Virus record (IMG/VR): IMGVR_UViG_2698536484_000013
Coordinates: 1 to 17,868 of that record
Reading direction: 5' to 3' (one strand)
DNA: 17,868 nucleotides
Origin: a virus
Taxonomy: Duplodnaviria > Heunggongvirae > Uroviricota > Caudoviricetes
The notes under the pieces were generated by a model, which saw nothing but the letters and a program-made list of their open reading frames with translations, had not been told where the DNA came from and did no database searches. A program made the translations under genes and the position numbers. Positions 9,628-12,283 of this stretch are shown here, piece after piece. The first letter of the stretch is position 1, and every line of letters begins with the position of its first letter.

Positions 9628-9783
9628 GTGTCATCCAAGGTTAATTATGAGTCGCTGGCATCGGTCATGCCGCGTAATGAACAGGAAACAGATGCTGTAG
9701 TGGACCCTGTAATCGCTGAAATGAATGCTCGCCTGGAGGCTGAATTTGCAGCTGAGAATGAACATACCACCCAGGGCGACTAG
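9628..9783 (+). CDS. Small acidic hypothetical protein (51 aa from GTG)
   Basis: GTG 9628 with GGGAGA SD 6-7 nt upstream; the ORF track's first start codon is 9595. Coding status uncertain; overlaps the start of the next gene. Confidence 0.35.
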   Translation: MSSKVNYESLASVMPRNEQETDAVVDPVIAEMNARLEAEFAAENEHTTQGD

Positions 9784-10387
9784 GACTGTTTTTTGTGTCG
9801 GTAGCGGTCCGTCACTCACTCGTGAGGACTGTGCTGCTATAGAAAAAACTGGCTGTTCAATCATCGCGGTTAACAATTCCTGGCAGATGTTCGATGACAT
9901 TTATGCCTTATACGCCGGTGATTTGTCATGGTGGAAGCAATACGGTTCCACCATACCGGGAGGGAGGTTCCGCAAAGTGACAGCCAACCTGGCGGCGGCG
10001 AAATCATTTTCGTTGGAGTACAGGCGATATTGTGGACCGGCGGAAGGGGTAAATAGCGGCGCGCAGGCTATCAGTCTGGCTGCTGAATCAGGGGCTGAAG
10101 TAGTGGTATTAGTCGGCTATGACTGTTCTCTGCAAAACGGCCTTCATTGGCATGGCGCGCACCCTCAAGCACTACGGAATCCAACGCAGGTGTCTATTTC
10201 AAAATGGCAACAGCAGTTCCTGGATACCCGCAAAAAACACGCAGATTTACATATTTTGAATGCAAGTAGGAGCAGTGCAATTCAATGTTTCCCAAGAATA
10301 AATTTAGAGGCAGTGATCGCGTTATTATCGTCGGCAGTGGCCCAAGCGCCGCAAACTTTGTTGCGCCGCGCGGAGTGCCGATTATAG
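9758..10387 (+). CDS. Rossmann-type GSGPS-motif protein, paralogue A (sialyltransferase GT42 / DUF115 Maf-MptE-like fold suspected)
   Basis: Motifs VGSGPSL, IIAVNN, NSGAQAISLAAESGAEVVVLVGYD, HWHG in the same order and spacing as the GNGPSL / CN / TSG...GID / His motifs recalled for Campylobacter CstII-type enzymes. Start is ATG 9758 or ATG 9725; the 3' end overlaps paralogue B by 103 nt in another frame. Confidence 0.65.
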   Translation: MNIPPRATRTVFCVGSGPSLTREDCAAIEKTGCSIIAVNNSWQMFDDIYALYAGDLSWWKQYGSTIPGGRFRKVTANLAAAKSFSLEYRRYCGPAEGVNSGAQAISLAAESGAEVVVLVGYDCSLQNGLHWHGAHPQALRNPTQVSISKWQQQFLDTRKKHADLHILNASRSSAIQCFPRINLEAVIALLSSAVAQAPQTLLRRAECRL

Positions 10388-10911
10388 CGGTCAATGGGGC
10401 CATCGACTGGCTTAACCGCGCTTCTTATTTTTTCACCCTTGATCCATCCCCAGACAATATGCGGCGCGTTGGTCGTGGCCGCCGTCGCCGTGGTGTTTGT
10501 TATTGCATGGCACTACCCGATGTTAAAGAACGTGAAGTCAGAGATGGCGTTCTGTGCTTCCGTCGTGTGGCTGAACGCGGCATGGAGCCAAAAAATACGA
10601 ATTCTCCCGAGTGGTGGGCGTGGCGCTGGTCCGCACATTTCGGCCTTTGCGAAGATGAGAATGAAATTGCCAGCGGCAATAGTGCATATGGTGCTCTGAA
10701 CCTGGCTTTCCATATCGGATTCAAACATGTAGCTCTGGTGGGCGTTGACGCTACGCAAGAACTACGCGTTCACTCCGGCGGCACGCCAAAAAATCTAAGT
10801 CACCTGCCTTTGTTATTCCAGTCTGCGCGTGAACAGATTGACGTTGTTTCATGCGGGAAAATGGGAGGTATTCCGCAGATGACTCTTAAAGAATGGCTGA
10901 AGAATACATGA
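10285..10911 (+). CDS. Rossmann-type GSGPS-motif protein, paralogue B (tandem duplicate of the upstream gene)
   Basis: 208 aa; [44 protein letters not shown] in the same order as paralogue A; stop overlaps the start of the phosphatase gene (ATGA). Confidence 0.75.
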
Positions 10912-11585
10912 TGGAACCCACAATTTATCACCGTATCGACGGTACCAAATACAGGAATGTCTGGGTTGTTGGTGATCTGCATGGTTGCTACACCAGACTG
11001 ATGTCCGAACTCCATCGTGTGGATTTTGACCCGGCGCAGGATTTACTGATATCGGTCGGCGACCTTATCGATCGCGGTACTGAAAATGTCGAATGTCTGG
11101 AACTATTGCAGATGCCCTGGTTCAGGGCAGTGATGGGGAACCATGAGCGGTTGATGCTCGATGCGTTAAGTCCTGATGGCAACGTGAATAACTGGCTAAT
11201 GAATGGCGGACAATGGTTCTTCATGCTGGACACTGATCAGGAAATATTAGCCAGGGCGCTGGTGGAGCTGGTAAAGCGTCTGCCCTATATCATTGAGTTG
11301 AACACCGGGCAAGAAACTATCGTTATAGCCCATGCCGACTATCCGGATAATGAATACCAATTCGGTAAGGAGGTGCCGCTTTTCAACGTTGTCTGGGCGC
11401 GCGAGCGTATCAGTGATTCGATGGATGATATTGGTGGCGAAATTTCGGGCGCAGATCGTTTTATCTTTGGTCACACTCCGGTGAAAAGCCCGAAGACATT
11501 CTGGGATCAGCAGTATATCGACACTGGTGCCGTATTTTGCGGAAACCTGACATTGATGAAAGTGAAAGGTGATGGTGCAGCATGA
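10908..11585 (+). CDS. Ser/Thr protein phosphatase, lambda-PPase (NinI)-like metallophosphoesterase
   Basis: GDLHGC, GDLIDRG and GNHE metallophosphatase motifs; near-collinear with lambda phosphatase as recalled ([20 protein letters not shown]...[14 protein letters not shown]). Start ATG 10908 overlaps the upstream stop; the ORF track start 10893 is less likely. Would correspond to the P1 phosphatase gene if the P1-like context holds. Confidence 0.9.
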
Positions 11586-12283
11586 AGATTGCTTTAGTTT
11601 TTCGCTCTGGTGGTGACTATAACGCTTCCGATGTGCAGTGGCTGGTTAATCAACTGCCAAAAGGCTATGAAATTATTTGCCTGACAGACCTGAAGCGTTT
11701 ACATGTACCTGGCGTCAAAGTTGTCCCATTGATCAACCAGTGGCAAAAGTGCCGTGGCTGGTGGGCGAAAATCGAGTTGTTCCGACCGGATATAACCGAT
11801 GATCTGTTCTATCTGGATTTGGACACGGTTATTGCCGGTGATATACGCCCAATCCTAGAGCATCCACCAACCAGCTTCACCATGCTTAGGGATTTTTACC
11901 ATCCACAATATCGTGGCAGCGGTGCCCTGTGGATACCAAATAGTGTTAAAGCGCATATCTGGAGTTCATTCTGGCAAGATCCGGAAGGTTGGATTTCTCG
12001 TTGTGTCACTACTGAGTGCTGGGGTGACCAGGGGTTCTTACGAAAGGTTATGGGCGATGATACACCAGCATTTCAGGATCTGTATCCAGGATGGTTTGTA
12101 AGTTACAAGGCCGATGTTGTGGAACCTGGTTCAAAATATGCGAGCGCGCGTTACTCCAGGGGGAATGGGGCATTACCAAAAGACTGCCGAATAATCTTTT
12201 TCCACGGCAAACCGCGACCTCGCGAAGTGTCAGAGGATTGGCTTCCCCTTATCAGCTCATTTTTTGAGCGAGAATCAGAATAA
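11582..12283 (+). CDS. GT-A fold glycosyltransferase-like protein (GT8-like: DxD and HxxGxxKP motifs)
   Basis: 233 aa; N-terminal [21 protein letters not shown], DxD in [12 protein letters not shown]-terminal FFHGKPRP resembling the GT8 HxxGxxKPW motif; ATG overlaps the phosphatase stop (ATGA). Family assignment by motif only. Confidence 0.75.

Follow-up and report, generated by a model that had tools for sequence, protein, structure and literature searches.

A C1-controlled operon of P1-like phages encodes a putative glycosylation cassette that recurs among phage head genes

Phage P1 is a workhorse phage, yet it carries 'putative morphogenetic' genes without an assigned role. What might these genes be doing? 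Here we address this question for pmgO, pmgP and pmgQ, using a P1-like operon that lies at positions 9628-12283 of a 17,868-nucleotide stretch of viral DNA (IMG/VR record IMGVR_UViG_2698536484_000013; the whole stretch is hereafter the window). A preliminary description, made from the letters of the sequence, had proposed that this locus encodes a glycosylation module. Our analysis leads us to a tentative reading, close to evenly balanced, in which PmgO, PmgP and PmgQ of this C1-controlled operon constitute a mobile, phage-borne glycosylation cassette, with a protein of the virion, specifically of its head, as the favoured acceptor. What appears to be new is a widespread, fusion-linked cassette of Maf-like and GT8-like proteins that is associated with phage head genes. 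The company that this cassette keeps with head genes makes a testable question of an otherwise imprecise annotation.

The locus in P1-like phages

By megablast, phage P1 and its relatives (P7, SJ46, RCS47 and others) match positions 9480-12400 of the window over their full length at 97.7-99.5% identity, and the stretch under study is 99.5% identical to P1 itself. The P1 record AF234172 is colinear with the window from 1057 to 15315 (99.1% identity). Both ends of the window differ from P1, and the source is therefore a P1-like variant, a mosaic P1-like element. Moving the P1 GenBank annotation onto the window by a 21-nt offset identifies the locus as the already annotated pmgN-pmgO-pmgP-ppp-pmgQ operon of a P1-like phage (Table 1). 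Two of its genes have functional names in RefSeq and PHROGs, pmgO as 'alpha-2,3-sialyltransferase' and pmgQ as 'glycosyltransferase'.

Four genes had been counted in this interval; five are annotated, and reading of the sequence confirms that they overlap, as had been described. Position 9628, given earlier as the start of the operon, is the GTG of pmgN, whose frame stops at 9783, and not the start of the first GSGPS gene. The overlap of pmgN with pmgO is 59 nt as annotated and 26 nt with a pmgO ATG at 9758. This later start is supported by the homologue alignment and likewise by the structure model, in which residues 1-16 have a predicted local distance difference test (pLDDT) score below 50. 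Further along, pmgO and pmgP overlap by 103 nt, with AGGAG about 10 nt 5' of the pmgP ATG; pmgP and ppp overlap by 19 nt, or by ATGA if ppp starts at 10908; and ppp and pmgQ share the ATGA at 11582-11585.

A recurrent three-gene cassette

Loci were compared with local hidden Markov models (HMMs), drawing on the contexts of distant homologues and on a viral-contig scan led by distant PmgP. PmgQ is present with PmgP in all 36 analysed loci and PmgO was detected in 29 of the 36, across unrelated phage backgrounds that span 37-62% GC. PmgP is the most conserved member, and an exhaustive profile search of representatives places its relatives in 523 clusters at 50% identity. The proteins also occur as natural fusions, found by local hmmscan in the orders O-P (P0092), P-Q (P0220 and P0291), Q-P (P0311), Q-P-methyltransferase (P0269) and methyltransferase-P (P0304). 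Cassettes of other phages contain additional genes, including an FkbM methyltransferase (PF05050, 5.9e-18), a class-I methyltransferase, a GT2-like gene and a GT-A-like gene; such variable transferase and methyltransferase genes are what one expects of a glycan-building locus. Given this co-occurrence, the fusions and the accessory genes, PmgO, PmgP and PmgQ can be regarded as one functional unit, and very probably they form a single glycosylation pathway. The earlier proposal of a module that combines glycosyltransferases with a phosphatase thus stands for PmgO, PmgP and PmgQ, on the strength of co-occurrence and fusions; the phosphatase falls outside it, as described below.

The cassette often lies among genes for building phage heads. 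In at least 12 relatives it is found within a head-gene cluster. An HK97-type major capsid gene (PF05065) stands immediately 5' of it in L005, which is a Pseudomonas prophage, and in L090, L092, L100, L107, L108 and L114. In L100, L112 and L147, the cassette genes are intermingled with those for gp6-like connectors and head-completion proteins, and in L089, L113 and L098 a portal, Mu-F or prohead-protease gene lies 5' of it.

Three observations on individual loci may be recorded here. In L112 (4718-6001) and L147 (1631-2899) the gene between the pmgO-like and pmgP-like genes encodes a head-completion protein (Phage_HCP, first 105 residues) extended at its C-terminus by a Ser-, Thr- and Gly-rich stretch of about 320 residues, which is a candidate O-glycosylation acceptor. 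Proteins P0329, P0343 and P0359, of about 400 aa, combine a PmgP-like domain with another domain, DUF115-like but highly divergent, which the HMMs assign neither to PmgO nor to PmgP; the two-domain arrangement may have arisen more than once. Finally, a Serratia plymuthica locus (L004, from chromosome CP180221; 2014-15785 in locus coordinates) has pmgQ-like and pmgP-like genes beside a phage lysozyme gene on one strand, and two separate pmgO-like genes at distances of 5 and 12 kb, surrounded by Big_1, lipase and lipoxygenase genes. It looks like a decayed or rearranged prophage.

PmgO and PmgP resemble the catalytic core of Maf

PmgO has the motifs GSGPS (at residue 26), NSG, GYDCS and HWHG, and its family is invariant at GPS, D35, N50, D66, W70, S111-G112, G131, D133-C-S, H141 and H143. 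PmgP has GSGPS at residue 17, followed by GNSA and GVDA. BLASTP between the two proteins finds the N-terminal motif alone; hhalign, with the row of fusion P0092 left out, aligns their families at a probability of 97.8% (E 7e-13). Judged from these alignments they are paralogues, as the preliminary description had it, and distant ones.

That description also placed both proteins in a GT42/DUF115 fold, and the two halves of this assignment fared differently. The DUF115 half is sustained. Scores against PF01973 (DUF115/MptE-like) are 23.4 bits for PmgO and 20.9 bits for PmgP, both under the gathering threshold of 34.6, and the natural fusion P0092 passes it with 44.6 bits; 33 of 34 PmgO homologues and all 31 PmgP homologues match the family at E <=1. 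The GT42 half gives way to Maf, the nearest characterised relative. GT42 enzymes (CstI and CstII) show neither significant sequence similarity to PmgO or PmgP (E ~0.1 to CstII) nor the closest structure, and the motif matches of the two proteins to CstII are collinear, if weak.

A structure model was made for PmgO alone, and PmgP was judged by sequence; the PmgP profile found no match among PDB sequences. Maf ranked first in two independent structure searches with PmgO, which has a fold similar to that of the Maf catalytic domain. The closest solved relative, Maf of Magnetospirillum magneticum (5mu5; PF01973), glycosylates a protein, flagellin, and not lipo-oligosaccharide. The alignment covers 164 of its 632 residues, and PmgO (220 aa) and PmgP (208 aa) correspond to the catalytic core only. 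Shared core motifs are GxGPS, (N)SG and G-x-D. Maf activity needs an acid, a Ser and an Asp (E324, D415 and a conserved Ser), and PmgO (D66, S111, D133) and PmgP (D53, S133, D155) seem to have retained these positions, as judged by motif order. The Ser-to-Asp spacing is 22 residues in both, compared with 23 in CbMaf. Unlike Maf, PmgO and PmgP are phage-encoded, form a paralogous and sometimes fused pair, always occur with a GT8-like partner, have about 200 residues rather than 632, and score under the Pfam gathering threshold.

Could PmgO and PmgP be something other than glycosyltransferases? They might be MptE-like or thiamin-pyrophosphokinase-like enzymes, or non-catalytic nucleotide-binding partners, in a pathway that makes or modifies a small molecule or a phosphorylated intermediate, with PmgQ acting on the product. 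The Pfam family they match is named for MptE and both proteins consist of the nucleotide-binding core only, which speaks for this alternative. Against it stand the first rank of Maf in both structure searches, the collinear (if weak) CstII motifs, the catalytic triplet pattern kept by motif order, the constant partnering or fusion with a GT8-like enzyme, and the frequent presence of other glycosyltransferases and sugar-type methyltransferases. Taken together, we consider it improbable.

PmgQ is a GT8-like protein

Profile and structure comparisons agree in identifying PmgQ as a GT8-like GT-A enzyme, as judged from its sequence and model. A profile built from 26 homologues, searched against PDB sequences, matches AgtA first (6mw5, 1.5e-6) and then GlyE and glycogenin. 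Invariant positions of the family are W60-W61, K63, D79-L-D81-T, S113, G148-D149, S174, K176, H208-G, P211 and P213. The DLD motif is invariant in all 26 homologues and aligns to the DxD of AgtA, GlyE and glycogenin, and the GT8 alignment as a whole spans the invariant W-W-x-K, DLD, GDQ (which is glycogenin-like) and FHGxPRP positions. In the AlphaFold2 model (pLDDT 94), nearly all of the best 50 Foldseek matches in the PDB are GT8 chains, with AgtA first at 6.6e-9 and many chains at 7e-9 to 1e-7; glycogenin, GlyE, WbbM, LgtC, XXYLT1 and LARGE1 also appear, with TM scores of 0.5-0.6. The GT8-like fold proposed earlier for the last gene was confirmed by these checks.

The motifs cited for that proposal held in part. 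The DxD is present as D79-L-D81. The C-terminal F-H208-G-K-P-R-P resembles, and is not identical to, HxxGxxKPW, the motif that supplies the third metal ligand in GT8, having His-Gly-x-Pro in its place; in the HMM alignment its His falls two residues later than that of glycogenin. PmgQ differs from the known members of GT8, which include AgtA/GlyT of Skp1 glycosylation, glycogenin, GlyE, LgtC and WaaJ/WaaO, in its small size (233 aa), its 11-18% identity and its lack of a Pfam match. P1 PmgQ matches no Pfam family, including PF01501, which only 6 of the 26 homologues match (best E 0.026). It has a family of its own, phrog_1962, whose members occur only with PmgP.

Which acceptor?

We favour a virion (head) protein as the acceptor on two grounds: the cassette recurs among head genes, and the closest solved relatives of its products are directed at proteins. 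Alongside Maf, the PmgQ relatives AgtA, glycogenin and GlyE act on proteins or protein-linked glycans. We hold a virion acceptor to be possible, somewhat short of an even chance.

In the mechanism that we propose, PmgO and PmgP would be soluble Maf/DUF115-like transferases, probably made in a fixed ratio by coupled translation and probably working as a pair, given this coupling and their fusion in some phages. PmgQ would be a soluble, GT8-like, metal-dependent retaining hexosyltransferase. During lytic growth, the three would draw on the nucleotide sugars of the host and assemble a short glycan on a cytoplasmic macromolecular acceptor: PmgO/PmgP would transfer a CMP-activated ulosonic acid, and PmgQ would add a hexose from UDP-glucose or UDP-galactose. 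The glycan would decorate the surface of the particle, on a virion protein that is probably part of the head, and would be dispensable in laboratory plating. To our knowledge, E. coli K-12 has no CMP-ulosonic acid other than CMP-3-deoxy-D-manno-oct-2-ulosonic acid (CMP-Kdo), a donor that all Gram-negative hosts of these phages possess.

Precedent for several of these steps comes from Maf enzymes, which O-glycosylate Ser/Thr of flagellin, a self-assembling structural protein modified in the cytoplasm, and which can use CMP-Kdo in E. coli (10.1101/2020.06.03.131540, PMC11339370). A more specific form of the proposal, which we think rather unlikely as stated, is that PmgO and PmgP make up a heterodimeric, minimal Maf-like enzyme that puts Kdo on Ser/Thr of a head protein, that the GT8-like enzyme and the variable enzymes extend the glycan, and that this is the first virion-glycosylation system in phages of Gram-negative bacteria.

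Several points weigh against a virion protein as acceptor, or against catalysis by all three proteins. In P1 itself the cassette lies outside any head-gene cluster and away from capsid gene 23; its closest morphogenetic neighbours are pmgR on the downstream side and, upstream and encoded on the opposite strand, the tail genes 26-5. It also sits behind a C1 operator, so it is expressed early too. A minority of cassettes lie where morons classically do, behind the lysis cassette or ahead of the terminase (L002, L003, L087), which fits a host-directed function equally well. Because PmgP lacks the HWHG motif that is invariant in PmgO, one of the two paralogues may, from sequence, be non-catalytic. 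At about 200 aa, PmgO and PmgP also have no equivalent of the regions that flank the core in the 632-residue Maf chain and are assumed to help in flagellin recognition. Deletions show no plaquing or antirestriction phenotype (PMC9024508, PMC10695390), and the paper on the P1 virion proteome mentions no glycosylation, nor did it look for any (PMC9024508).

Other published experiments also bear on the need for these genes. Plaque formation does not require pmgO, pmgP, ppp or pmgQ (PMC9024508, PMC10695390), CRISPR interference (CRISPRi) against the four has no effect (PMC10695390), and their products are absent from the reported virion proteome (PMC9024508). Our literature searches, which took in pmgO, pmgP and pmgQ as well as DUF115 and WaaZ in connection with phages, found no functional study.

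The preliminary description had raised lipopolysaccharide (LPS) as a target, and modification of LPS or another envelope glycoconjugate is one rival reading. The enzymes would work at the cytoplasmic face of the inner membrane, adding Kdo and/or hexose to lipid A-core or to a lipid-linked glycan; the P1 receptor, outer-core glucose, would be altered, limiting superinfection or the number of progeny lost to cell debris. GT8 does include LPS outer-core transferases, and two of these, WaaJ and WaaO of E. coli K-12, show a weak alignment with the PmgQ profile (hhalign probability 47% and 14%). The Kdo-III transferase WaaZ has an SGP(S/T)...AVNG...G-x-D pattern like that of PmgO and PmgP, with which it aligns weakly (hhalign of the K-12 protein, pairwise E ~4e-4, probability 31-39%), and there is a TIGR04437 match at E 0.1 and a faint PF27901 match on P0092. 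The GT42 relatives CstI and CstII act on lipo-oligosaccharide, every named host is Gram-negative, and some cassettes at moron positions stand beside lysis genes. Yet all of the Waa similarities are below significance, and the dominant synteny is within head-morphogenesis clusters. The P1 operon is C1-repressed and so would be inactive in lysogens, and the deletions have no plating phenotype. Nor is any feature of membrane association seen: PmgN, PmgO, PmgP, Ppp and PmgQ contain no transmembrane-like segment, with a maximum 19-residue hydropathy of <=1.4. On this balance an envelope target seems unlikely, and we retain the virion as the favoured site. The same C1 repression argues against a role in lysogenic conversion in P1.

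DNA glycosylation was also considered and rejected, as no DNA-modifying relative appeared in any search; P1 DNA, as far as we know, contains no hydroxymethylated bases.

Comparison with known systems and significance

Glycosylation of mycobacteriophage virions has reportedly been shown experimentally, by Freeman et al. (2023; 'Virion glycosylation influences mycobacteriophage immune recognition'; cited through PMC11256854). As with PmgO, PmgP and PmgQ, that system consists of phage glycosyltransferases of variable composition, with methyltransferases in some phages, and it is non-essential for plaques; decoration of capsid and tail proteins has been proposed or shown there. It differs in that its enzymes belong to other families and its hosts are Actinobacteria. 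Moreover, glycosylation here is an inference, and the P1 genes are not beside the capsid gene. We know of no Maf-like pair or GT8-like partner in the mycobacteriophage system.

CstI and CstII of Campylobacter, and WaaZ of E. coli, share collinear GPSL and SG...G-x-D motifs with PmgO and PmgP and use CMP-activated ulosonic acids, the WaaZ donor being available in every host of these phages. Unlike the phage proteins, they act on lipo-oligosaccharide or LPS and are encoded by single genes in chromosomal clusters for these molecules, and the matches to them are non-significant.

If virion glycosylation proves true, the mycobacteriophage phenomenon would extend to phages of Gram-negative bacteria, with a bearing on phage immunogenicity, stability and engineering, and with a minimal Maf-type enzyme for glyco-engineering. 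Were the minimal Maf-like, Kdo-transferring form correct, P1 and hundreds of other phages would carry a phage-specific surface glycan. If LPS were instead the target, the cassette would represent a new lytic-phase strategy of receptor modification.

Ppp and PmgN join the cassette only in P1-like elements

Ppp is a phosphatase of the lambda-PP type, as the preliminary description had recognised. It matches PF00149 (Metallophos; 8.7e-16, 59.4 bits against a cutoff of 21.5) and the PrpA/PrpB-type NCBIfam model NF008516 (3.9e-81, below the equivalog cutoff), belongs to the NinI-like phrog_246, and has the full motif set, GDLHG, GDLIDRG and GNHE at residues 27, 56 and 82 (GDxHG, GDxxDRG and GNHE in lambda-PP (NinI) and PrpA/PrpB). 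According to the P1 record it is 64% identical to lambda-PP, and it is an ordinary member of this group with no notable difference.

Its inclusion in the glycosylation module did not survive comparison with other phages. Ppp and PmgN occur with the cassette only in P1-like elements, and phage D6 has ppp (89.7% identical DNA) without the cassette, among unrelated genes. As ppp is restricted to P1-like cassettes and stands alone in D6, it is a passenger, a lineage-specific insertion between pmgP and pmgQ in the P1 lineage. In the proposed mechanism, Ppp would be a separate NinI-type phosphatase that landed between these genes, with PmgN likewise lineage-specific. A four-enzyme pathway that needs a phosphatase, for example with Ppp dephosphorylating a sugar-phosphate or phospho-protein intermediate, could account for the tight translational coupling in P1, with ATGA overlaps on both sides of ppp, and for an arrangement kept in all P1-like loci examined (L007, L105, L109-L111, L115 and L141). 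It is very improbable, however: besides the unrelated neighbours of ppp in D6, Ppp is missing from every cassette that is not P1-like, including those of the distant P1-sized elements L101-L103 and L106, in which pmgQ directly follows pmgP, and it is close to the protein phosphatases NinI of lambda and PrpA/PrpB of E. coli.

PmgN is found only in the P1 lineage. Plating drops about 70-fold under CRISPRi against pmgN, although deletion of this gene is harmless, as is the knock-down of each gene downstream of it (PMC10695390); dCas12a bound beside Op83/PpmgN may do something besides silencing pmgN.

Transcriptional control

The operon is C1-repressed according to the P1 annotation. The preliminary description had it bracketed upstream by a divergent control region. 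Such a region exists between gene 26 and pmgL (~8618-8700), at a distance of about 0.9 kb, and pmgL and pmgM separate it from pmgN; what lies directly 5' of pmgN is the predicted promoter PpmgN with the operator Op83. The LP26/LPpmgL region with Op82, which matches the operator consensus with 2 mismatches, is likely to be the start of a transcription unit that runs from pmgL to pmgQ. Op83 has 4 mismatches to the consensus used and was hence missed by our operator scan at <=3 mismatches. A terminator scan found no terminator-like site between pmgM and pmgN, so that transcription of the predicted unit can start at the late promoter LPpmgL as well as at a C1-controlled promoter.

Downstream, the operator-terminator-operator element described earlier is borne out by repeat search, folding and operator counts. 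Inverted copies of a C1 operator, ATTGCTCTAATAA, at 12285-12297 and 12338-12350 flank the hairpin and T-run; the element folds at -26.9 kcal/mol (z -9.2), and the window contains 4 operator-consensus matches where 0.06 are expected. Our terminator scanner overlooked the hairpin, the likely reason being that G-T pairs lengthen the stem and use up the T-run. The element (12285-12350) ends the pmgQ transcript and controls pmgR and pmgS.

Table 1. Genes and control elements in and around the operon, in window coordinates
Feature	Position	Strand	Description
LP26/LPpmgL and O26/Op82	8618-8677		Divergent late promoters and C1 operator (8661-8677, minus strand); P1 annotation
pmgL	8735-8980	+	Small Cys-rich protein; upstream, same strand block, outside the cassette
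pmgM	8983-9561	+	VRR-NUC-like; upstream, same strand block, outside the cassette
PpmgN	9529-9555		Predicted sigma-70 promoter; P1 annotation
Oppp/Op83	9568-9584	-	Monovalent C1 operator; P1 annotation
pmgN	9628-9783	+	GTG start; 51-aa acidic protein; phrog_2350
pmgO	9725-10387	+	DUF115/Maf-like putative glycosyltransferase; annotated 220 aa, probable start 9758
pmgP	10285-10911	+	DUF115-like distant PmgO paralogue; 208 aa
ppp	10893-11585	+	Lambda-PP/NinI-type Ser/Thr metallophosphatase
pmgQ	11582-12283	+	GT8-like GT-A putative retaining hexosyltransferase; 233 aa
OpmgRa/Op86a	12285-12301	+	C1 operator; P1 annotation
Terminator	12310-12337		Hairpin followed by T-run; repeat search and folding
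OpmgRb/Op86b	12334-12350	-	C1 operator; P1 annotation

Other genes in the window

Two genes outside the operon deserve mention. dbn (2792-3790, plus strand), which follows ban in the C1-controlled ban operon, gives a match below threshold to the GT-B family Glycos_transf_1 (E 3.4e-5, 23.9 bits against 26.4), and Dbn may be a fourth candidate glycosyltransferase of P1, about 6 kb from the cassette. pap (13920-14426), the P1 'acid phosphatase', matches the HAD-type domain of polynucleotide kinase-phosphatase (PF25109, E 5e-11), which suggests a role in nucleic-acid end repair rather than that of a generic acid phosphatase; being of this HAD/PNKP type and not a lipid-phosphate phosphatase, Pap lends no support to an envelope-lipid pathway.

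At the ends of the window, where P1 and this element part, a 275-aa SPFH/Band-7 open reading frame (211-1038) takes the place of tciA, tciB and tciC within 1-1056, and the segment 15316-17868, which is not colinear with P1, contains an Ead/Ea22-like open reading frame at 15829-16362.

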